From: a virus
Length of the DNA: 39,456 bases
Reading direction: 5' to 3' (one strand)
Virus record (IMG/VR): IMGVR_UViG_3300045988_107369
Below, one piece after another: positions 218 to 39,456 of this stretch. Within the stretch, counting starts at the first letter, position 1, and every line of letters begins with the position of its first letter. The notes beneath the pieces were generated by a model. That model saw nothing but the letters and a program-made list of their open reading frames with translations. It was not told where the DNA came from and searched no databases. The translations under genes were made by a program, and so were the position numbers.

Positions 218-236
218 TGTCGTCAATTTGTCGTCA
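218..236 (+). promoter_or_regulatory. Two direct copies of TGTCGTCA spaced 11 bp apart; candidate integrase arm-type binding sites (attL arm)
   Basis: TGTCGTCA at 218..225 and 229..236. The same octamer recurs three times in the same orientation in the attR arm (39301, 39320, 39331). Confidence 0.5.
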
Positions 237-1352
237 GGAAGATTCGGCGGTTTTTGCTTGATTTTCGCCTGTCGGATTGATCGAAGTCAGCACGTTGCGC
301 AGCGTGTCGATTTCGTTGTGAACGTAGATTTCAGCGGTGACGTTGATGTCCTTATGACCAAGTAATTTTTGGATGGTGTAGATGTCTGCACCATGCCGCC
401 GGAGATAAGTACCATAGGTGTGCCGCAGTTCGTGTGCTGTCACAACCGGCACTTCGTTATGCTCATTGTGCAGCTTTCGCATAAGGCGTTTGAGCTTCTG
501 CGACCATGTGTTCGGGCAATAGGGCTTGCCGTCCTCGTTCGGAAACAGATACAGAGATTCCTTCGGCAGCGAGCGGATCAGCTGGACAGCCTCCTCGCTC
601 AACGGCAGGGTACGGTAGCTTTTCCACTTTGGCGGATTGGCAACGACCGTCCCGTTCCGCACGATCATAGAGCGCTGCACGCGGAGTGTCTTTTCGTTCA
701 AATCAATATCCGACCACATAAGGCCAACCAGTTCACCACGGCGCAGGCCGGTTTCCAGCAGGAGCACGACCTCGGGCATACGATCTGCGGTATAGGCTTT
801 GACCGTTTCTATCTGCTCATCACTGAGAACGTGCTTGATATGCTGCTGGGCGGTGCTGCGGTAGGTGCAATGCTTGGCAGGATTCTTATAGCAGAGGTCG
901 TTCTCTATCGCACATTCAAAGATTGCGTTGAGAATTGACCGCATTTTCTTTAATCGACTTTCCGAGCACGCTGTCTTAGTGGCGAAATACGCCTGTATGT
1001 CTACCGGACGAATATCGGATAGGAGGGCATTTCCAAAGTAGGGGATTAGGTGGCCCTCGACGAGGCTGACATAGGTCAGCTTGTATGTATCTTCCTCAAC
1101 AAACGGCTGCTTATAGGACAGCAGCCATTTCCGCGCCCAGGGAGCAAAGCGGCCGGTGGAGGGCACAAAGGCCTCTCCGGTACGCGCCGACACCTCGGAG
1201 GCTACGCGGTATTCCTCGGCTTTCTTCTTCGCATCGGACAGACTCACGGTGCTGTAAAAGGATTTGCGCAGCGGCTTGCCGTGGATATTGCGGCTGATGG
1301 TGATCTTGTACTCGAACCGTTTGTCCTTGCGTGTTGGCTTTTTTCTTGGCAT
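234..1352 (-). CDS. int: Tyrosine recombinase / phage integrase
   Basis: 372 aa. C-terminal catalytic region contains LRRGEL, HELRHTYGTYL and LLGHKDINVTAEIYVH (R..HxxR..H..Y pattern). Adjacent to the att repeat. Confidence 0.95.
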   Translation of the reverse strand: MPRKKPTRKDKRFEYKITISRNIHGKPLRKSFYSTVSLSDAKKKAEEYRVASEVSARTGEAFVPSTGRFAPWARKWLLSYKQPFVEEDTYKLTYVSLVEGHLIPYFGNALLSDIRPVDIQAYFATKTACSESRLKKMRSILNAIFECAIENDLCYKNPAKHCTYRSTAQQHIKHVLSDEQIETVKAYTADRMPEVVLLLETGLRRGELVGLMWSDIDLNEKTLRVQRSMIVRNGTVVANPPKWKSYRTLPLSEEAVQLIRSLPKESLYLFPNEDGKPYCPNTWSQKLKRLMRKLHNEHNEVPVVTAHELRHTYGTYLRRHGADIYTIQKLLGHKDINVTAEIYVHNEIDTLRNVLTSINPTGENQAKTAESS

Positions 1353-1396
1353 AACAATAAAACCCCTTTCTTATCGCATGAAGGTGTGATAAAATA

Positions 1397-1432
1397 GAGG
1401 TACTGATGGATGTGGTAATTTGTCAGTACCTC
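1397..1432 (-). terminator. Perfect 10-bp inverted repeat (GAGGTACTGA/TCAGTACCTC); possible minus-strand terminator or insulator upstream of int
   Basis: 10-bp stem with 16-nt loop, followed on the minus strand by TATTTTAT. Confidence 0.35.
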
Positions 1433-1435
1433 ATG

Positions 1436-1475
1436 TCCCGCTCTGGTGTTGGTAGCACCGGAGCGGGATTTTTTT
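1436..1475 (+). terminator. Strong intrinsic terminator on the plus strand
   Basis: 13-bp stem TCCCGCTCTGGTG/CACCGGAGCGGGA (one G-U pair), 7-nt loop, then TTTTTTT. Confidence 0.6.
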
Positions 1476-1805
1476 ATAAAATTTAAAAAGTTTTTTGACA
1501 CTTTTATATACCCAAAAAGCAATGGTAAAATGTGGCGTCGTGGCTTAGGAGGCTCGATTACGCACGATCCTATTTTTGGAAGTATATTAAAAAGTTTGAA
1601 CAATGTGAAATTGGAAAAGTTAGTCGGTCATATTGCCAATTTACAAATATGAAAAAATGAATTACTATTATTTGCATAAAAGGCGAACATGCGTTCTTGG
1701 AACACATTATAGAGAAAGGCAGGAAACTGTATGGCAGATAATCTACGGCGGGTCGCCCAATGCATTGCTCGCTGCCGTAATAAGGAAAAAGTGAAAGTAG
1801 CGCTT

Positions 1806-2201
1806 TCATTCTTTCTCGAACCATGCGTCCAACAATCCAATCCAGTGGATCAGGAAATCGGCATCGCGGTTGCTGATGTCCTCGCCGTTGCGGATATAAC
1901 CGCGCTCAACGAGTAAATCGGTGAGCCATTTTTCAATCTCCTCTACTTCAGCTGCGGCTGGAGCAGGGGAGTTTTCTTTTTTGAAAAACTCGTTAAATCC
2001 ATCAACGCGCCCTAACAAATAGTCCACTGTACACCCAGTTATGTTAGATACAGCGATGAGTATTTCTGAATCTGGCTTGTGATTTCCTTTTTCGTAACCG
2101 TTTAATGTGCTGGCTGCAATCCCGAGTTTTTCAGCCAGTGCCTTTTGAGTCATGCCGATATTTTTGCGAGCATCGGCTATTCGTGTACTCATATCATTCA
2201 C
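1806..2201 (-). CDS. XRE-family HTH repressor (CI-like)
   Basis: 131 aa. N-terminal HTH is IGMTQKALAEKLGIAASTLNGYEKGNHKPDSEILIAVSNITGCTVDYLLG. Divergent from a Cro-like gene. SD GAGGTG precedes the ATG. Confidence 0.9.
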   Translation of the reverse strand: MNDMSTRIADARKNIGMTQKALAEKLGIAASTLNGYEKGNHKPDSEILIAVSNITGCTVDYLLGRVDGFNEFFKKENSPAPAAAEVEEIEKWLTDLLVERGYIRNGEDISNRDADFLIHWIGLLDAWFEKE

Positions 2202-2218
2202 CTCGTTCTGTTGTTTTT

Positions 2219-2247
2219 ATAGTAAACCATAGGAGAACGCAAGTCAA
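2219..2247 (-). promoter_or_regulatory. Sigma70-type promoter for the repressor gene
   Basis: The minus strand reads TTGACT, a 17-nt spacer, then TACTAT, just upstream of the repressor SD and ATG. Confidence 0.55.
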
Positions 2248-2262
2248 TACCAAAAATTCTAT

Positions 2263-2339
2263 ATTCTCGAATTTTCGTTCCCCAAAAAGGTTGACAAATT
2301 CGAGTAATTAGAATATTATATAGTTAGAGATTCGAGAAT
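2263..2339. promoter_or_regulatory. Three operator-like palindromes ATTCnnGAAT in the divergent switch region
   Basis: ATTCTCGAAT at 2263..2272 and ATTCGAGAAT at 2330..2339. An imperfect copy ATTCGAGTAAT at 2298..2308 lies between the -35 and -10 of the rightward promoter. Confidence 0.6.
2291..2319 (+). promoter_or_regulatory. Near-consensus sigma70 early rightward promoter
   Basis: TTGACA (2291..2296), exactly 17 nt of spacer, TATTAT (2314..2319). Confidence 0.7.
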
Positions 2340-2354
2340 CTCAAATTATAGGAG

Positions 2355-2564
2355 GTGAATACAGTGAGAATGAATATCGAAGCCGAACGCGCTAGACTGG
2401 GTTTGAGCAAAGAAGAACTTTCGAGAAAATTGGGAATCAGCTCCAAGACGTATAGTAAGTACGTTGGAGGTTCTCCAATTTCTTCGGACATTCTTGTTAA
2501 AATGGCGGATTTGTTTGACTGCTCCATCGATTATTTGCTCGGGCGCAACGAAGTAACCGCATAA
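2355..2564 (+). CDS. XRE-family HTH regulator (Cro-like)
   Basis: HTH is LGLSKEELSRKLGISSKTYSKYVGGSPISSDILVKMADLFDCSIDYLLG. SD AGGAGG at 2350..2355 favours a start at GTG 2364 or ATG 2370 rather than 2355. Confidence 0.88.
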   Translation: MNTVRMNIEAERARLGLSKEELSRKLGISSKTYSKYVGGSPISSDILVKMADLFDCSIDYLLGRNEVTA

Positions 2565-2586
2565 ACGAAGAAGGAAGTGAGCACCA

Positions 2587-2682
2587 ATGTTTTGGAATTG
2601 GTTAAAGAAAAACCACCCCGTTATCAACGAAGCGGTATGGTGGCTAGTCATTCTGATGTGCGTCGCTGTATTACTTAATTAA
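2587..2682 (+). CDS. Possible 31-aa membrane peptide (not in the ORF track)
   Basis: ATG 2587 is preceded by GAAGGAAG. The product MFWNWLKKNHPVINEAVWWLVILMCVAVLLN has a hydrophobic C-terminus. Its end overlaps the converging gene by 12 nt. Confidence 0.3.
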   Translation: MFWNWLKKNHPVINEAVWWLVILMCVAVLLN

Positions 2683-3015
2683 GAAAAAAGATTTGATGAA
2701 TGCTGCTAATGCGATGATAAGGGTTGCCCAAGCACGAAATTCCTTGAATTTAATAGTGTGACGGGCCTTGGTTTCATCTTCCAAAGCAGCACGCCCCTCG
2801 AAGGTGATATAAAAGGGCATATCAGGGGTTAATGCCCTTTGATCTTCTGATTCTGGGTAATTTGGATCAGTATGATCACCGTCGATAAATCCTTTTTCCC
2901 ATAGGGAACACAACACATCCATTGTGTTGGTGTTCATAACGGCGTCAAGCTGCAAAAGCGACATTCTGGATCGCACAGAAAACGCTTTGAGCGTATTAAA
3001 TGATAAGTTGTCCAT
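2671..3015 (-). CDS. Hypothetical protein with a winged-helix-like N-terminus and a C-terminal TM anchor
   Basis: Start assigned to internal ATG 3015 because AGGAGG (reverse complement of 3023..3028) precedes it. 114 aa. C-terminal WATLIIALAAFIKSFFLI is hydrophobic. Oriented like int and the repressor. Confidence 0.65.
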   Translation of the reverse strand: MDNLSFNTLKAFSVRSRMSLLQLDAVMNTNTMDVLCSLWEKGFIDGDHTDPNYPESEDQRALTPDMPFYITFEGRAALEDETKARHTIKFKEFRAWATLIIALAAFIKSFFLIK

Positions 3016-3020
3016 CAGTA

Positions 3021-3092
3021 TTCCTCCTTTCAGTTCCCAGTATATCACACTGACCGAGGAGAGGCAACGACGACACACAGGAAAGCGAGGTG
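3021..3092. repeat. Copy A of the duplicated bidirectional intergenic cassette
   Basis: Aligns with 3773..3838 at roughly 75% identity by eye. Shares the leftward SD TTCCTCCT, the extended -10, and an 18-nt perfect block ACACAGGAAAGCGAGGTG (3075..3092 = 3821..3838). Confidence 0.8.
3039..3047 (-). promoter_or_regulatory. Extended -10 promoter element (TGATATACT) for gene 2671..3015
   Basis: The minus strand reads TG-A-TATACT about 10 nt upstream of the SD. Conserved in copy B. Confidence 0.5.
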
Positions 3093-3097
3093 AGAAC

Positions 3098-3379
3098 ATG
3101 ACCGAAACCGAAAAGTTGAAACAGGAAAACGAAACCCTGCTGCTGTGCCTCGAACTTACGTTTGCAGTCGTGGAGCTTTGGGCAAAGCAGCAGGGGTTCA
3201 TCCAGTCAACGTCGGGAGACGTACTCGAAAAGGAACTTGCCGATCGGAAGAACGAGGTCAGAACTCTTTTTTACAAGCTTGTAAAAACGAGCGAGCCGGG
3301 ATTTCTCGACGGGCTTCTCGGAGCGTTGAATATCCCGGAGGATGTCAAGCATCTCGTTAAGCTCCGCTTGATCGGCTGA
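3098..3379 (+). CDS. Hypothetical 93-aa protein (uncertain)
   Basis: ATG lies 5 nt after the conserved GAGGTG of the repeat block. The product MTETEKLKQENETLL... looks protein-like. It overlaps the 3' end of minus-strand gene 3206..3766 by 174 nt, so one of the two may be a shadow ORF. Confidence 0.35.
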   Translation: MTETEKLKQENETLLLCLELTFAVVELWAKQQGFIQSTSGDVLEKELADRKNEVRTLFYKLVKTSEPGFLDGLLGALNIPEDVKHLVKLRLIG

Positions 3380-3766
3380 TGGCTGGCGAGAGATAACCTC
3401 TTGGATCTCATCAAGAGCAGCCGAACTGTTGTAGTTCATCGAGCCAACAGTATTGTTGTTGCCGATCGTCGCGTTGTTGATCGTCGCGCCGCTGAAATTA
3501 AAGTTGGCCGATGGCTGTTCTGTGACAGCAACAAAACCGTTGCGTACATATGTCTCGCCTTTTTCAGTAAGAGCAAGACAGTAACCACCTAATATAGGCA
3601 TAACAGTCCTTGCATAGCCTCGGTCAGTGATTGTCTGTACTGCGGTTCTGAGAGCAGCAGTGTCTGGAATTTGTTCACACTTGTCCGCACTGATCTGGAA
3701 AGGGCCTGCGTGGTTCTGCTCATGGTCGTAGATGAGCTTCAACAGTATGTTACAAACAGTATTCAT
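3206..3766 (-). CDS. Hypothetical protein: winged-helix-like N-terminus, Asn/Gly-rich linker, helical C-terminus
   Basis: Start at ATG 3766 is preceded by AGGAGG. 186 aa. Contains LALTEKGETYVRNG (MarR-like wing), NFNFSGATINNATIGNNNTVGSMNYNSS, then amphipathic helices. Confidence 0.65.
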   Translation of the reverse strand: MNTVCNILLKLIYDHEQNHAGPFQISADKCEQIPDTAALRTAVQTITDRGYARTVMPILGGYCLALTEKGETYVRNGFVAVTEQPSANFNFSGATINNATIGNNNTVGSMNYNSSAALDEIQEVISRQPSADQAELNEMLDILRDIQRSEKPVEKSRLARFYKLVKKSSDLVLPIGKFLFEYVSRR

Positions 3767-12952: not shown

Positions 12953-13018
12953 ATACAGCGATAAAGTTCGGCGCTACCTCGTGTGGCGCTACGGCATTAC
13001 GGACAGGGAGGGGAAATA

Positions 13019-13417
13019 TTGAACAAGCGTGAGGACTGGTGGGAGTACACAAAGCGCATCATTCGGTCATACCCGGCGCTGCGCCGCAAGGCGGAGAGCG
13101 TAGGCGACATGCCCTGCACACCGACCTACGGCGCGTCCGGCGGCCACAGCGGCGGCGGCAGTCCGGTTGAGCGTGCGGTCGTTGACCGACTGACAGATAA
13201 GGAGCAGCGGCGGTATGATGCGGTGCGGGCTGCCATCTCGGAAACCGAGGTGATGAAGCACGGCCGCCAGCGCATGGAACTGATCGACCGCGTGTACTGG
13301 AAGCGCAGCCATACGCTGTACGGCGCGGCGATGTGCGTGCCGGTGAGCGAGAGGACAGCGCATACATGGAATGCGGAGTTTATCCGGATAGTTGAAAAAT
13401 ATTTAGATCTTCCGTGA
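13019..13417 (+). CDS. RinA/ArpU-like late-gene transcriptional activator (sigma region-4-like)
   Basis: Last gene before the packaging module. Contains WWEYTKRIIRSYPALRRK and ELIDRVYWKRSHTLYGAAMCVPVSERTAHTWNAEFIRIV. TTG 13019 follows GGGAGGGG; the ORF-track GTG at 12983 is an alternative start. Confidence 0.6.
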   Translation: MNKREDWWEYTKRIIRSYPALRRKAESVGDMPCTPTYGASGGHSGGGSPVERAVVDRLTDKEQRRYDAVRAAISETEVMKHGRQRMELIDRVYWKRSHTLYGAAMCVPVSERTAHTWNAEFIRIVEKYLDLP

Positions 13418-13459
13418 AAATTTGCCTAACGTGCACCTAAATCTGTGTTTTAATAGTAT

Positions 13460-13509
13460 CATGAAGTTGACAGGGGTGAAACGCAGACCCTGTGACCTCC
13501 TGCTTCATG
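13460..13509 (+). other. Nested imperfect palindrome or RNA stem-loop of unknown role
   Basis: CATGAAG..ACAGGG-12 nt-CCCTGT..CTTCATG. Confidence 0.4.
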
Positions 13510-13533
13510 CCATTGGAGTACATCTCTGAAAGA

Positions 13534-13558
13534 GCACTCTCGTTCGAGGGTGCTTTTT
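13534..13558 (+). terminator. Intrinsic terminator after the early/middle operon
   Basis: Stem GCACTCTCG/CGAGGGTGC followed by TTTTT. Confidence 0.6.
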
Positions 13559-13561
13559 CCA

Positions 13562-13591
13562 TTGACAATGTAATTGACCATATTGTATTGT
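13562..13591 (+). promoter_or_regulatory. Candidate sigma70 promoter upstream of the DUF2971-like gene
   Basis: TTGACA, an 18-nt spacer, then TATTGT. The leader would be very short. Confidence 0.4.
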
Positions 13592-13607
13592 AGAACCATG
13601 GAGGTGT

Positions 13608-14372
13608 ATGTTTATGTCGAGTTTGTTTAAGTATTTTCCGGCGACCTACATAAAAGATGAGAACGGAAAAGAAAGAAATTATGCTCTGGAGAGCATCAAA
13701 AATAATACTTTGTGGGCATCTATTCCTGATGAGTTTAACGACTTGTTTGAATGTGCATTTTATTACACAGAAGACGATATTTTTGATTTTATTTTATTAC
13801 AATATCCTGAAATGATAGATTGGATTGATAAAGCAAGGAATAATTGGATTGAACGGAACAAAATTCAGTCGGATTATGCTAATATGCAAGACACTATGGA
13901 GTGTATTAAGAAAAGATTTGGAATAACTTGTTTTTCGCAGACTGATATAGAATTACTCATGTGGGGACATTATGCTAATTCACATAAAGGCATATGTATC
14001 GAATATGATGAAGAAAAAATCAATAAATGCAAGATTGTCAAAGGCTATGTGTCCTATGTAGAATCGCTTCTACGAATAAAAGTTTTCACAAAAGAAGCGT
14101 TAGAGAAAGCTGGGATAGCCATGATGTTTATGAAATCGAAAAGGTGGGAATATGAACAAGAGGTTCGAGCGATAGCAACTCCTGTTAAAGTGGGTGACTT
14201 GGGTACTACTTGGGAAGCACCAATACCCAAATCAATCCGCCTTGGTGTAAAAGCAGACGAGCGCTTGAAAGCTGAAATCAAAGACTTGTGCAAAGAAAAA
14301 GGCATTGAGTTATACCAAATGGAAAGAGTGCCCGGACAATACGCAATCGAAAAAATAAAAATAGAACTGTAA
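13608..14372 (+). CDS. DUF2971-family protein; AT-rich accessory (moron) gene
   Basis: Contains SLFKYF, LWASIPDEFNDLFE, ITCFSQ..LMWGHYANSHKGICIEYD and KSKRWEYEQEVR, matching conserved DUF2971 blocks. About 37% GC in a sampled stretch versus about 63% in terL. SD spacing favours ATG 13614. Confidence 0.8.
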   Translation: MFMSSLFKYFPATYIKDENGKERNYALESIKNNTLWASIPDEFNDLFECAFYYTEDDIFDFILLQYPEMIDWIDKARNNWIERNKIQSDYANMQDTMECIKKRFGITCFSQTDIELLMWGHYANSHKGICIEYDEEKINKCKIVKGYVSYVESLLRIKVFTKEALEKAGIAMMFMKSKRWEYEQEVRAIATPVKVGDLGTTWEAPIPKSIRLGVKADERLKAEIKDLCKEKGIELYQMERVPGQYAIEKIKIEL

Positions 14373-14381
14373 CCCAGCATA

Positions 14382-14410
14382 ACCGTCTACCTCGTAGGCG
14401 GTTTTCTTTT
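14382..14410 (+). terminator. Intrinsic terminator after the DUF2971-like gene
   Basis: Stem ACCGTCTAC/GTAGGCGGT, loop CTC, then TTTCTTTT. Confidence 0.65.
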
Positions 14411-36401: not shown

Positions 36402-37349
36402 ATGAGCATTCGTTGTGACATTTACGACAGTAAGCAGTATGATATCTGGTTCGCAGCAGCACCCTACGCTGCTGCGTCCAAGCCTGCAAAGAGCCTGAAG
36501 CAGTGGGCGGCAGACGAGAAAGCCGACGTGGTGTACAATCTCGCTCTGTTCAACATGACCGGCAAAGGCTCTGACAAGTACGGCGTGATCAAGGGAAGAA
36601 CCTTGCAGTACCTGAAGGCCAAAGGCAAGGACTGCGGCTACGGTGGCACGTCTGAGCACCTGACACTGGATGCTGACAACGCCGTCGCAGGCTGGAAGCT
36701 GGCGATCAAGGATGGCAAGGTGAATGGATCTCTCGAGAAGTCTGATCGCCGCAGCCGTAACATGTGCGGCCTGCTGACAGATGGCCGATACATCCATGTG
36801 CAGACCTCTGCAAGCCATACGGAGTACGAGGTTGCACAGTACGTCCGGGATCACTATGATGTCAAGCTGCTGCTCGTTCAGGACGCAGGTGGCAGCACCG
36901 GCATGTATCGTGTGTCGGACGGCTACCTGTTCGCTCCTGAGCGCGAGGGCGCGAACGGCAGGCCGGTGTGCAGCGTAGTCTGCATTAAGCGTAAAAATAA
37001 GACAACGACTCCGAAGGAGGAGAACAAGATGAGCAAGAAGGTATTTATCGGTGTCGGCCACGGAGGTTCTGATTCCGGCGCGGTCGGCTACATTGTCGAA
37101 AAGGAAGCAAACCTCGTGATGGCACTTGCGTGCCGTGATTATCTGGTTGCACACGGCGTTGAGGTGCGCATGAGCCGCACCAAGGATGAAGAGGATCCCA
37201 TCAATGAAGAGGTCCGCGAGTGCAATGCGTACAACCCGGATCTTGCTATCGACGTGCATAACAACTCCGGCGGCGGTGATGGCTTTGAAGTATATCACAC
37301 TCTGAACGGCGGCACTGGCAAGGTCCTCGCGCAGAACATTGAGAAGTAG
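36402..37349 (+). CDS. Endolysin: NAGPA-like (phosphodiester glycosidase-like) N-terminal domain plus the first part of an Amidase_3 domain, ended by an in-frame TAG
   Basis: NAGPA-like signature: RNMCGLLTDGRYIHV and LLLVQDAGGSTGMY. Amidase_3 signature: KVFIGVGHGGSDSGAVG and DLAIDVHNNSGGGDGFEVYH. TAG at 37347..37349 interrupts the domain. Confidence 0.85.
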   Translation: MSIRCDIYDSKQYDIWFAAAPYAAASKPAKSLKQWAADEKADVVYNLALFNMTGKGSDKYGVIKGRTLQYLKAKGKDCGYGGTSEHLTLDADNAVAGWKLAIKDGKVNGSLEKSDRRSRNMCGLLTDGRYIHVQTSASHTEYEVAQYVRDHYDVKLLLVQDAGGSTGMYRVSDGYLFAPEREGANGRPVCSVVCIKRKNKTTTPKEENKMSKKVFIGVGHGGSDSGAVGYIVEKEANLVMALACRDYLVAHGVEVRMSRTKDEEDPINEEVRECNAYNPDLAIDVHNNSGGGDGFEVYHTLNGGTGKVLAQNIEK

Positions 37350-37745
37350 GTTATCAAGATCGGCCAGAACAGCCGTGGCTGCAAGACTCGACGGGGCCAG
37401 CGCGGCGACTACTACGCCTTTGTCCGTGACACCAAGTGTCCGGCTGTTATCTGTGAGGGCGTGTTCGTTGACACCAAGGCAGATGCTGCTCAGGCCGACA
37501 CCAAAGCCAAGCAGCAGGCGTTCGGCGTAGCGTATGCCAAGGGAATCCTCGACACACTCGGCATTAAGTACGATACCACGACCGCCAAGCCTGCTGAGGC
37601 GACCAAGCCGCAGGACCCGGAAGTGCAGGCCGCAATCGAAAAAATCCAGACCAAAGCTGGTCTGGAGGAAAAGACGACCGAGTATCTGCTCGCATACGAG
37701 TACGGCGAAAGTCTTGTGAAAAAGCTCGCAAAGGCGATGGAGTAA
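37350..37745 (+). pseudogene. In-frame continuation of the endolysin after the TAG (rest of Amidase_3 plus C-terminal tail)
   Basis: Same frame as 36402. Encodes VIKIGQNSRGCKTRRG..DYYAFVRDTKCPAVICEGVFVDTKADA, the conserved C-terminal part of Amidase_3. Confidence 0.8.
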
Positions 37746-37761
37746 CGCAAGAATAGAAGTA

Positions 37762-37807
37762 AGCCCCGTTGGATAGTTGTTTCTGACATCCAACGGGGCT
37801 TTTTCTT
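37762..37807 (+). terminator. Strong intrinsic terminator ending the late/lysis operon
   Basis: 13-bp stem AGCCCCGTTGGAT/ATCCAACGGGGCT followed by TTTTCTT. Confidence 0.8.
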
Positions 37808-37821
37808 ATGTTTGAGTAGCC

Positions 37822-37850
37822 TTGACAAAAGAGTGAAATTCTCGTATGAT
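37822..37850 (+). promoter_or_regulatory. Near-consensus sigma70 promoter of the terminal cargo operon
   Basis: TTGACA (37822..37827), exactly 17 nt of spacer, TATGAT (37845..37850). Confidence 0.7.
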
Positions 37851-37880
37851 GAACACATCTAACTGAAAGAAGATGGTTTT

Positions 37881-38483
37881 GTGGGCGACGATAATTTTTC
37901 TGTCTGCGCAAGAATAGCTTTAACCGGCATCGTTCTTCTTGCTGTATTTGCACTGCTCTGTTGTGTTTCCTTCTTATGTACAAAAAAATTGCAAAAACAT
38001 TTAGATAATGATTGCGATCGCAAATGTGTGTATTTATTGAAGAAAGACTTCATATACATGAGTATTATCGCAGGAATAGTGATCGTAATATTGCTGACAT
38101 TGACTTTTGCTAAGGACGAAAATGCAATCAATTATTTTTCGTTTGCAGGTACACTTAGCTCGATTATCCTGTCGGTTGTAGCGATTTTTATGACAATCAA
38201 CAGTGAAAACGAGAGTAAAGATGCGAAAACACAGCTAGACAGATCAATAGCTAAAATGGAAGAGTCTACTCAAGCAGTTGAAAAAGCCTCTGACGATTGG
38301 AAAAATACAGTTACCGAACTTCAAGGAAGATTGGATACTGTGCGTGTAGAGATCGAAGATGTTCTGGAGCGCATTCAAAAAGTGGCTGATCAAAACGATC
38401 AAATCCTTGTCCATTCAAAAGAACGAAACTTCAAAGGTGAGGATTTGGAATGGGTGCCTCAAAGGAGGAACAATAATGGATAA
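37881..38483 (+). CDS. Cargo protein 1: three-TM membrane protein with a cytoplasmic coiled-coil tail
   Basis: 200 aa with GTG start. Hydrophobic helices IALTGIVLLAVFALLCCVSFL, MSIIAGIVIVILLTLTF and FAGTLSSIILSVVAIFMTI. About 90 aa of heptad-like charged sequence follows. AT-rich. Confidence 0.65.
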   Translation: MGDDNFSVCARIALTGIVLLAVFALLCCVSFLCTKKLQKHLDNDCDRKCVYLLKKDFIYMSIIAGIVIVILLTLTFAKDENAINYFSFAGTLSSIILSVVAIFMTINSENESKDAKTQLDRSIAKMEESTQAVEKASDDWKNTVTELQGRLDTVRVEIEDVLERIQKVADQNDQILVHSKERNFKGEDLEWVPQRRNNNG

Positions 38484-38928
38484 GCCAACAGCATTATCTA
38501 TGTTAAAAGTCACAATCATCGGATCAGAAGTCATAAAAGACACAAGATCAGTCCAACTGATTGATACTGTAAAAAAAGATGAAGAGGGTAGATTTGATAT
38601 TTCTGCTTTCGTAAGAATACAACAGACGCAAGAAATAGATGATAAGCTATATTTGTTTGTATGTCAGCGCCATGATGATGAATATCGAATATTTTCGCTT
38701 ACAGAAATACATCTTAACCCGAGTAAACAGGCGAATGCCGAAGGGCAAGATCACATGGTTGATGATACCAACAGAATCATTACAGATGAGTATCATATCA
38801 TTCAAAATTGTAAGTTTAACTTTCTTGCAATACCTCCGACACCGTCTGGAGTTTATGCTTTAGTAGTATCGACTAAAGAAAATGACCCTTCTGGAATGCT
38901 TGATGCGTACTACTTTCGCGTTGAATAA
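38476..38928 (+). CDS. Cargo protein 2: 150-aa soluble protein of unknown function
   Basis: SD AAAGGAGG lies 6 nt before ATG 38476. Overlaps cargo protein 1 by 8 nt (translational coupling). No motif recognised. Confidence 0.7.
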   Translation: MDKPTALSMLKVTIIGSEVIKDTRSVQLIDTVKKDEEGRFDISAFVRIQQTQEIDDKLYLFVCQRHDDEYRIFSLTEIHLNPSKQANAEGQDHMVDDTNRIITDEYHIIQNCKFNFLAIPPTPSGVYALVVSTKENDPSGMLDAYYFRVE

Positions 38929-38941
38929 ATGAAGAATGCAA

Positions 38942-39005
38942 AGCCCCGTCTACCGGGCGATCTCGAAACGAGGTCGCAAGCTGGTAGACGGGGCTTTTTC
39001 GTTTT
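38942..39005 (+). terminator. Two-tier intrinsic terminator of the cargo operon
   Basis: Outer 13-bp stem AGCCCCGTCTACC/GGTAGACGGGGCT encloses inner stem GCGATCTCG/CGAGGTCGC, followed by TTTTTCGTTTT. Confidence 0.75.
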
Positions 39006-39150
39006 GCCTGCGGAACAACGCAGATAGAAAAATCAATTATCATAATAGCCAAAACGGTAAGCGGTAATTTGACAAACCGACTCCCAGTAACGCCTCAGCT
39101 CTTCTGAATACACTTTTATTCGAAAAGAATAATCAAAACCAGACAGATTT

Positions 39151-39168
39151 CAGAGGAAAACAGAGGAA
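39151..39168 (+). repeat. Tandem CAGAGGAA repeat in the attR arm (possible accessory-factor site)
   Basis: CAGAGGAA at 39151..39158 and 39161..39168, 10-bp phasing. Confidence 0.3.
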
Positions 39169-39300
39169 TTTGTCAACCGTTCAGCGGAAAAATAGCGTAT
39201 TTGTAAGTTCTCATATCTTCTCCAATCTTTATAGCATATCGGCAGAAAACTTTCCAATGGGGAGGCGGCTGCCCTAAGCGCTTTCGAGGGCAGGGAACAC

Positions 39301-39338
39301 TGTCGTAAAAAGTTCCTTTTGTCGTCAAAGTGTCGTCA
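39301..39338 (+). promoter_or_regulatory. Three direct copies of TGTCGT(A/C)A; candidate integrase arm-type sites (attR arm)
   Basis: TGTCGTAA at 39301 and TGTCGTCA at 39320 and 39331 (11-bp spacing). Same motif and orientation as 218 and 229. Confidence 0.5.
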
Positions 39339-39356
39339 GTTAAAAACTGGAACAAC

Positions 39357-39397
39357 AAAGATAAAGAAAAAGTGCTGAAATTCAATGATTTCAGCAC
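39357..39397 (-). terminator. Intrinsic terminator downstream of the tRNA, supplied by the phage arm
   Basis: The minus strand reads GTGCTGAAA-8 nt-TTTCAGCAC followed by TTTTTCTTTATCTTT. Confidence 0.7.
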
Positions 39398-39403
39398 AAT
39401 TCT

Positions 39404-39456
39404 TGGTGCGGATGGGGGGACTTGAACCCCCACGTCCTTGCGAACACTAGCACCTG
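39404..39456 (-). tRNA. tRNA-Leu(CAG), 3' portion only (anticodon to CCA); the 5' half lies beyond the window end
   Basis: Reverse complement is CAGGTGCTAG TGTTCGCAAGGACG TGGGGGTTCAAGTCCCCCC ATCCGCA CCA. This gives anticodon CAG, a long class-II variable arm, a T-arm, an acceptor and an encoded CCA. Confidence 0.8.
39407..39456. repeat. attR core: right copy of the 50-bp direct repeat
   Basis: Identical to 1..50. Identity may extend past the window edge. Confidence 0.9.

Follow-up and report, generated by a model that had tools for sequence, protein, structure and literature searches.

A prophage-borne gene pair encoding a remotely SLATT-like membrane protein and a predicted Ig-like partner is a candidate anti-phage module

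RexAB of phage lambda is a prophage two-gene abortive-infection system that consists of a membrane channel, RexB, and a cytoplasmic sensor, RexA. Here we analyse a two-gene cassette of another prophage, located at positions 37,808–39,005 of the IMG/VR virus record IMGVR_UViG_3300045988_107369, a stretch of 39,456 nucleotides (hereafter the window). Its genes encode a membrane protein, P1, and a soluble partner, P2. SLATT proteins, which contain two or three transmembrane (TM) helices, are predicted to act as pore formers at the effector step of CBASS, DRT and RADAR systems (PMC9226505). In DRT10, the SLATT gene precedes that of its partner, and the stop and start codons of the two genes overlap (bioRxiv 10.64898/2026.04.29.721553). 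In type I CBASS, an immunoglobulin-like (Ig-like) AGS-C domain of ~18 kDa is fused to cyclases, some of the operons carry SLATT effectors, and the domain is thought to tune phage sensing or specificity (bioRxiv 10.1101/2023.05.21.541620; PMC11381338). Because the P1–P2 pair combines SLATT-like and Ig-like parts as in CBASS, without an enzyme between them, we tentatively favour, at somewhat less than even confidence, a lysogen-expressed sensor–effector anti-phage module of the abortive-infection or exclusion type.

The layout of the cassette supports an autonomous transcription unit, with a conserved predicted promoter and two flanking terminators (Table 1). All structural elements listed in the original prediction are present at, or a few bases from, the positions assigned to them, including the near-consensus promoter, the 8-nucleotide overlap of the two open reading frames (ORFs), AAAGGAGG before the second ORF and the two-tier terminator. 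Four diverged cassette lineages all have the −35 element TTGACAAA, the −10 pattern TAnnAT and the GTG start without any change, and the bases flanking these elements vary. The upstream terminator has a ΔG of −30.5 kcal/mol (z −7.3), and none of 200 shuffled sequences is as stable. Its left end is AAGCCCCGT and its right end ACGGGGCTTTTT, and the outer stem of the downstream terminator has identical ends; these shared ends, which had been pointed out from the letters alone, are real and are kept around the cassette in two lineages. The composition of the cassette supports a foreign origin of the unit, as had been proposed. Specifically, its GC content is 0.381 compared with 0.549 in the rest of the window, of which it forms the lowest-GC 1.2-kb stretch, and the GC content at third codon positions is 0.36 in P1 and 0.29 in P2 versus 0.68 in the endolysin and 0.71 in the holin gene. 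The backbone, first estimated at ~60% GC, measures about 55–56%.

Table 1. Features of the cassette and of the adjoining end of the prophage, in coordinates of the window.
Feature	Position	Strand	Description
Intrinsic terminator closing the holin–endolysin (late) operon	37761..37805	+	14-bp stem and U-run
Predicted sigma-70-type promoter, TTGACA-17-TATGAT	37822..37850	+	11/12 consensus matches; top-scoring site in the region
P1 (ORF1)	37881..38483	+	GTG start; 200 amino acids; ORF call
Shine–Dalgarno sequence AAAGGAGG for P2	38461..38468	+	Inside the 3' end of P1, 7 nucleotides before the ATG at 38476
P2 (ORF2)	38476..38928	+	ATG start; 150 amino acids; 8-nucleotide overlap with P1
Two-tier intrinsic terminator closing the cassette	38940..39000	+	ΔG −48.4 kcal/mol, z −8.6; U-run after
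att arm	39006..39406	.	Non-coding; context of the cassette
attR core, 50 bp	39407..39456	.	3' part of tRNA-Leu; direct repeat
Holin ORF, 89 amino acids	36123..36392		Upstream of the cassette; read from the ORF translation
Amidase_3 endolysin	36402..37745		Upstream of the cassette; profile match

P1 contains three hydrophobic segments, the first of which (TM1) covers approximately residues 11–33 by hydropathy. The Cys- and Lys-rich loop between TM1 and TM2 (residues 34–57) carries seven Lys/Arg residues and is assigned to the cytoplasm by positive-inside analysis, and P1 is therefore predicted to adopt an N-out/C-in topology, with an outer loop of only ~8 residues. The TM2–TM3 hairpin (~58–106) is near-invariant, with the core NYFSFAGTLSSIILSVVAIFMTINSE (family alignment A1). 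Among 23 P1 relatives, the TM3 region containing this core is almost invariant, and TM1 and the tail differ in sequence, the tail also in length. Residues 107–200 form a charged tail with a hydrophobic periodicity of 3.5–3.6 residues, and this ~90-residue tail is predicted to be cytoplasmic and either amphipathic or coiled-coil. Hydropathy and periodicity thus agree with the original description of three TM helices followed by a charged, heptad-like tail. In the AlphaFold model, which has low confidence overall (pTM 0.23), one continuous helix runs from TM3 into the tail (residues 82–183).

Across three independent libraries (Pfam, NCBIfam and PADLOC), no family other than SLATT turns up repeatedly for the P1 family. 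With Pfam, 15 of 23 close P1 members match SLATT_fungal, and 7 of the 134 distant members match SLATT_5. Among the 134 distant relatives, NCBIfam gives SLATT_4 in 15 (best E-value 7.8e-7), SLATT_5 in 14 and SLATT_1 in 2, and the PADLOC model RTasSLATT is found in 27 (best E-value 7.5e-7). P1 has the predicted topology of SLATT proteins, a two-TM hairpin core with cytoplasmic termini and a cytoplasmic helical region after it, and the distant relatives keep only the TM2–TM3 hairpin and the tail. Because every SLATT match is sub-threshold, SLATT is a lead and not a classification, and we refer to P1 as remotely SLATT-like in this restricted sense.

P2 is acidic and has no hydrophobic segment, and is predicted to be cytoplasmic. 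The AlphaFold2 model of P2 is a seven-strand Ig-like β-sandwich (pLDDT 83.4, pTM 0.79). The original prediction of a soluble protein without an assignable family therefore stands as far as the hydrophobic segment and the family match are concerned, and is refined by this predicted fold. In Foldseek searches, the top PDB match is PA1606 (3n6y; E-value 6e-4, TM-score 0.44–0.52), and GH3 Fn3-like domains and nanobodies are also matched; in BFVD, the matches are uncharacterised phage proteins, with a best TM-score of 0.64. An AGS-C (PF18134) identity of P2 was considered and rejected, as neither P2 nor its 32 relatives have a Pfam match to it. In line with this, the Pycsar AGS-C structure (9ard) ranks 49th in Foldseek with a TM-score of 0.40–0.44, no better than nanobodies or generic Ig folds. 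The sole Pfam family that recurs for P2 relatives is DUF6941 (5 of 32, best E-value 0.004), a possible lead that is not mentioned in the literature searched. Across the P2 family alignments A3 and A8, G125 is invariant in both and Y127 is present in at least 90% of the sequences.

In keeping with the proposal that the system is undescribed, neither P1 nor P2 scores above any curated cut-off of Pfam, NCBIfam, PHROGs or PADLOC, be it for a named family or for a PADLOC defence model. Against PADLOC-DB v2.0, P1 gives only coiled-coil noise (LmuB, JetC) and Csx23 at an E-value of 0.07, and P2 gives no match whatsoever. Against PDB sequences, P1 gives coiled-coil noise only, and P2 gives Ig, pilin or protease-inhibitor matches, none of them significant. 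Additionally, the cassette has no DNA or protein match among 50,697 GenBank phage records, a plasmid search returned only three weak P1-like matches, all without a P2 partner, and no description of the pair was found in the literature searched.

The cassette is nonetheless not an isolated oddity: homology searches place the pair, while unnamed as first proposed, in a large family of two-gene units that is conserved. Among 1.84 billion representatives, a profile search detects 1,534 clusters of P1-like proteins with E ≤ 1e-3 and 300 with E ≤ 1e-10, the count of ~1,500 being one of clusters at 50% identity. In close P1 homologues (45–98% identity), a P2 homologue always lies next downstream. The same holds for the distant P1 members that were re-examined, in which a P2 homologue lies directly downstream (hhalign 98.9%, 96.5% and 95.8%), and nearly all of the short P1 relatives inspected (~160–260 amino acids) are directly followed by a P2-type gene. 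A metagenome scan gave 80 loci, in which the closer P1 clade is nearly always followed by a match to the P2 hidden Markov model. A clade of 160–180 amino acids, with the two-TM core and tail only, is always followed by a coherent family of 150–170 amino acids. This partner family is remotely homologous to P2 (hhalign 76.9%, E-value 2e-5) through common motifs, namely the invariant G125, the nearly invariant Y127 and a terminal YxFxV.

A longer P1-like class of 280–340 amino acids, exemplified by L022 (Prevotella), L053 (Bacillus thuringiensis plasmid pKK1) and P0124/P0130/P0140, has the two-TM core, a coiled coil and a C-terminal extension, and lacks a P2 neighbour. The extension may replace P2 in this class. 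The neighbour of the Prevotella protein was compared with P2 and rejected as a homologue. In L022, the long P1-like gene adjoins a YafQ toxin–antitoxin pair (YafQ by Pfam), and on pKK1 it adjoins TerB-N/ATPase and DUF3427 genes.

Both genes of the pair diverge much faster than the adjacent endolysin gene, P2 fastest. Between L003, a locus of an Agathobaculum butyriciproducens genome, and L007, the endolysin is 90% identical (nonsynonymous divergence, dN, 0.07), P1 is 72% identical (dN 0.21) and P2 is 55% identical (dN 0.35, with synonymous divergence, dS, saturated). Where measurable, dN/dS is ~0.17–0.4, and ~0.32 for P1; it is always below 1, which indicates purifying selection on both genes. 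This pattern of divergence is arms-race-like.

Taken together with the predicted topology, which puts the P1 tail and P2 in one compartment, the cytoplasm, and so counts in favour of an anti-phage module, these features suggest how such a module might work. In the lysogen, the housekeeping-type promoter of the cassette would drive its transcription, the upstream terminator would insulate it from the late operon, and translational coupling would keep the ratio of P1 to P2 constant. P1 would be a SLATT-like membrane effector whose two-helix hairpin perturbs the membrane and whose coiled-coil stalk oligomerises and docks P2. P2, a fast-evolving cytoplasmic Ig-like protein, would restrain P1 and recognise a component of the infecting phage. 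Upon recognition, P1 would be released or re-assembled, the membrane would be permeabilised or depolarised, and the incoming phage would be stopped. Lysogen expression, the P1–P2 interaction, membrane permeabilisation and any anti-phage effect are what we infer here, and the role in defence or exclusion is proposed from genomic context and remote similarity.

The same cargo status and promoter evidence would equally serve superinfection exclusion (Sie) without cell death, in which membrane-located P1 blocks genome entry, for example at the level of the tape measure or of channel formation, with P2 as a stabiliser or adaptor. Sie systems of Gram-positive phages are usually small prophage membrane proteins with constitutive promoters, encoded beside att or lysogeny modules. 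We consider this decidedly unlikely for P1 and P2, however, as nearly all of the non-membrane part of P1 and the whole of P2 are predicted to be cytoplasmic, which leaves little exposed where an entering phage acts. Moreover, conservation within P1 is highest in the TM hairpin, a pattern that pore-forming effectors also show, and Sie proteins do not usually come with an obligatory soluble partner.

Comparison with related phages identifies the cassette as phage cargo (a moron) that stands outside the core programme of lysis and structural genes. It combines the features by which morons and accessory cargo are recognised: it has a promoter and a terminator of its own, its composition is deviant, and some related phages have it whereas others do not. 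At the junction between the endolysin gene and the attachment (att) site, phages whose endolysins are 77–94% identical have unrelated ORFs, an integrase or no cargo at all, which agrees with the earlier claim that this junction is a cargo hotspot. In particular, L044 and L017 have the endolysin in common upstream and are 97% identical downstream, yet L044 lacks exactly the 1.34-kb cassette. The L017 cassette is flanked by two terminators, both related to the single terminator of the empty site in L044. It had also been suggested that the cassette entered by recombination at a terminator. Because the flanking copies are duplicated in L017 and have shared ends in the window lineage, terminators as recombination points gain circumstantial support, the mechanism itself not being demonstrated.

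Cargo status is also apparent from where the pair is found in other phages. Agathobaculum-type phages with the pair are integrated at differing sites (tRNA-Leu, tmRNA and others), and in them the pair always follows the holin and endolysin genes on the same strand. Gut Firmicutes phages offer two variable cargo slots for the pair, one post-endolysin and the other between regulator and terminase. In distant pairs, this second slot lies between a small sigma-region-4-like regulator and terS/terL, and it holds the pair in only one of eight phages with a 64–88% identical regulator, the others having varied cargo.

These positions also bear on a lytic-cycle accessory role, in which P1 would be a holin-like or lysis-timing protein or a late membrane anchor, and P2 an antiholin-like cytoplasmic regulator. 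Such a role would account for the class I holin topology of P1 (three TM helices, N-out, C-in, charged C-terminus), for the constant place of the pair behind holin and endolysin in this phage group, and for the distant pairs just upstream of terS/terL in a family widespread in phages. It appears quite improbable for several reasons. A canonical holin gene is already present, read from its translation, and its 89-residue equivalent in relatives carries a precomputed PF04531 match. A terminator and an independent promoter part the cassette from the late operon, closely related phages do without the pair, and the pair is also found in non-phage loci. Additionally, P1 of the window matches no holin family, only 2 of 134 distant relatives show a weak Phage_holin_3_6 match (E ~1e-4), and P1, with its 90-residue coiled coil, is roughly double the size of a typical holin.

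Outside phages, the pair is found beside Fic in Phascolarctobacterium, beside IS110, beside a split D12 methyltransferase and, in L089, beside putative VapC/AbrB toxin–antitoxin ORFs (by eye from translations). Of these mobile-island contexts, those with Fic, IS110 and putative VapC/AbrB, together with the YafQ, TerB-N/ATPase and DUF3427 neighbours of the long P1-like genes, are counted in favour of an anti-phage module. Four non-phage loci lead in another direction, as the pair lies within or at the edge of polysaccharide-synthesis loci: after a glycosyltransferase and acyltransferase_3 in L021, 7 nucleotides after NTP_transferase in an EpsG/epimerase locus in L050, near UDP-glucose 6-dehydrogenase in L089, and near GalU and a putative sugar-epimerase ORF (by eye) in L100. 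Surface modification is a classical prophage conversion function, and this recurrence would fit an envelope or receptor modulator that alters membrane steps in the synthesis or export of cell-wall or capsular polysaccharide, thereby changing the surface that serves phages as a receptor, or another surface property of the lysogen, without killing. We nevertheless regard envelope modulation as unlikely, since neither P1 nor P2 has an enzyme-like fold or motif, the external loop of P1 is so short, and the P1 tail and P2 are predicted to be cytoplasmic. Moreover, polysaccharide loci are themselves variable and gather mobile cargo, with IS110 and probable toxin–antitoxin genes adjoining the pair, and in phages the pair travels without a glycosyl- or acyl-transferase.

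The toxin–antitoxin neighbours, namely YafQ beside the partner-less P1-like gene of L022 and putative VapC/AbrB beside the pair in L089, are likewise compatible with an addiction or selfish stabilisation module, in which P1 is a membrane toxin and P2 a labile antidote that favours retention of the prophage or island. The tight coupling of the two genes and the potentially toxic nature of a membrane protein fit such a module. We consider it highly improbable, however, because the putative toxin is encoded first, P2 is larger than typical antitoxins, and the predicted P2 structure has no DNA-binding fold for autoregulation. Its mechanism also overlaps with that of abortive infection, which makes the two hard to separate.

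Several observations weigh against the anti-phage sensor–effector reading itself. P1 of the window scores below the curated SLATT cut-offs (16.5 bits versus 26.5 for SLATT_fungal and 15.7 versus 60 for SLATT_5), and no SLATT match of its relatives is shown to pass a curated cut-off (Pfam PF18142/PF18160/PF18186, NCBIfam NF03363x). Low-complexity membrane and coiled-coil segments draw spurious matches, and the P1 model is too poor for a fold search, so that SLATT has no fold-level support. No nucleotide-signal or reverse transcriptase (RT) partner of the kind usual for SLATT proteins (SMODS/CD-NTase, SLOG, TIR, or UG/Abi RT) lies beside the pair in the window or in the ~100 related loci inspected. 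The Ig fold of P2 is generic, as its best PDB TM-scores indicate. The four polysaccharide-synthesis loci suggest an envelope role, and the high frequency of the pair in phages, always on the late-gene strand beside lysis or packaging genes, fits a role in the lytic cycle.

The window as a whole is one complete prophage, bounded by a perfect 50-bp direct repeat at 1–50 and 39407–39456. The repeat matches the 3' portion of a tRNA-Leu gene; in the A. butyriciproducens locus L003, an intact copy of this gene occupies the equivalent place. The cassette therefore sits just inside attR, separated from the att core by the ~400-bp non-coding att arm. The original prediction had placed it at the att arm; its place inside the attR end holds, and the att core itself lies ~400 bp further on. 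Four TGTCGTCA octamers are present in the window, as two tandem pairs (218..236 and 39320..39338), 11 bp apart. Both pairs adjoin att cores and there is no other copy in the window; because all four do so, the 39006..39406 segment is assigned as the att arm, and the octamers probably serve as arm-type sites for the integrase. Between the att arm and the tRNA-derived core, a perfect hairpin with an 11-bp stem (39372..39397) has T-runs on both strands and resembles a bidirectional terminator-like element. tRNA and Rfam scans of the window gave no matches.

Further observations concern other parts of the prophage. The endolysin gene is broken by one in-frame TAG (37347..37349), where relatives have CAG (Gln) in the motif QNIEKQVI. 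Stop-codon recoding was considered and rejected, as no further gene is restored when TAG, TGA or TAA is translated as a sense codon. The TAG is therefore a lone nonsense mutation or a sequencing error, and the prophage may be lysis-defective owing to it. A low-GC stretch (0.40–0.43) at 1200..2300, beside the prophage's integrase end, may contain additional cargo or lysogeny genes. The window's own regulator–terminase slot (13100..14400) holds a different AT-rich ORF. This slot belongs to a second AT-rich island (12983..14372), which consists of a 144-residue regulator-like ORF (12983..13417), resembling the regulators upstream of distant P1–P2 pairs, and then an AT-rich 254-residue ORF (13608..14372). 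The latter carries an FNDLFE motif, may be DUF2971-like, and precedes ORFs that are putative terminase genes by position only. The prophages of L001–L006 share this att site and have a cassette that is 98% identical. At locus coordinates 2141..3500, upstream of the holin gene, they contain an RVT_1 reverse transcriptase and a 125-residue ORF, which together look like a diversity-generating retroelement. This RVT_1 lies 2.8 kb upstream of the pair, beyond holin and endolysin, and so is not an adjacent partner. The element is absent from the window, and the tail-fibre/lysis region is therefore mosaic.

Gut Clostridia have abundant temperate phages, nearly all of whose accessory genes lack annotation, and the pair recurs across many of these phages. 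It is possible, although on balance doubtful, that the pair defines a large phage-borne two-component immune family, in which a SLATT-like effector is controlled directly by a stand-alone, diversifying Ig-like sensor, without a second-messenger synthase or an RT. We suggest, speculatively and with similar reserve, that such a family would represent a signal-less, minimal form of SLATT-based defence, widespread in gut Firmicutes temperate phages and housed in the lysin–att and regulator–terminase slots. An anti-phage module of this kind would be a common, compact (1.2 kb) and tractable addition to the defence repertoire of Gram-positive gut bacteria, with a SLATT-type membrane effector gated by a protein sensor instead of a nucleotide signal, and would account for part of the phage–phage competition in the gut. 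Should the role instead lie in the envelope or in lysis, a function would still be assigned to a very frequent phage gene pair.

Among known systems, class I holins share with P1 the three TM helices, the N-out/C-in topology, the charged cytoplasmic C-terminus and a location beside an endolysin gene. They differ in that the cassette is a separate unit downstream of the endolysin gene, in a phage that already has a Phage_holin_1-type gene, and in that P1 has about twice the usual size and a long coiled coil. RexAB resembles the pair as a prophage-borne combination of a polytopic membrane protein with a soluble cytoplasmic partner, lysogen expression being proposed for the window pair. RexB, however, has four TM helices and no coiled coil, whereas P1 has three and a coiled-coil tail; RexA is larger than P2 and is not Ig-like; gene order and position (immunity region) differ; and no sequence relationship was found between RexAB and P1/P2.

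The SLATT effectors (SLATT_1–6; type I CBASS, DRT10/UG17, DRT3 and RADAR) are like P1 in size (~160–230 amino acids), in having a core of two or three TM helices with a cytoplasmic helical extension, and in their occurrence on mobile defence loci and prophages. As in the SLATT–RT arrangement of DRT10, the membrane gene lies upstream of, and overlaps, the partner gene. As in type I CBASS, an Ig-like domain of ~18 kDa is encoded beside a SLATT-type membrane protein of ~190 amino acids. Unlike type I CBASS, the cassette contains no nucleotidyltransferase ORF (ORF list), and therefore no second messenger can be made. In contrast to SLATT effectors in general, the pair is without a cyclase, SMODS, SLOG, TIR or RT, and P1 of the window clade possesses one additional TM helix at its N-terminus, as well as a loop rich in Cys. 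Taken together, the cassette is of a known kind, a prophage-borne pair with a putative membrane effector, and what is new is its unprecedented partner: a remotely SLATT-like protein is joined here, without a signal-generating enzyme, to a stand-alone protein predicted to be Ig-like.

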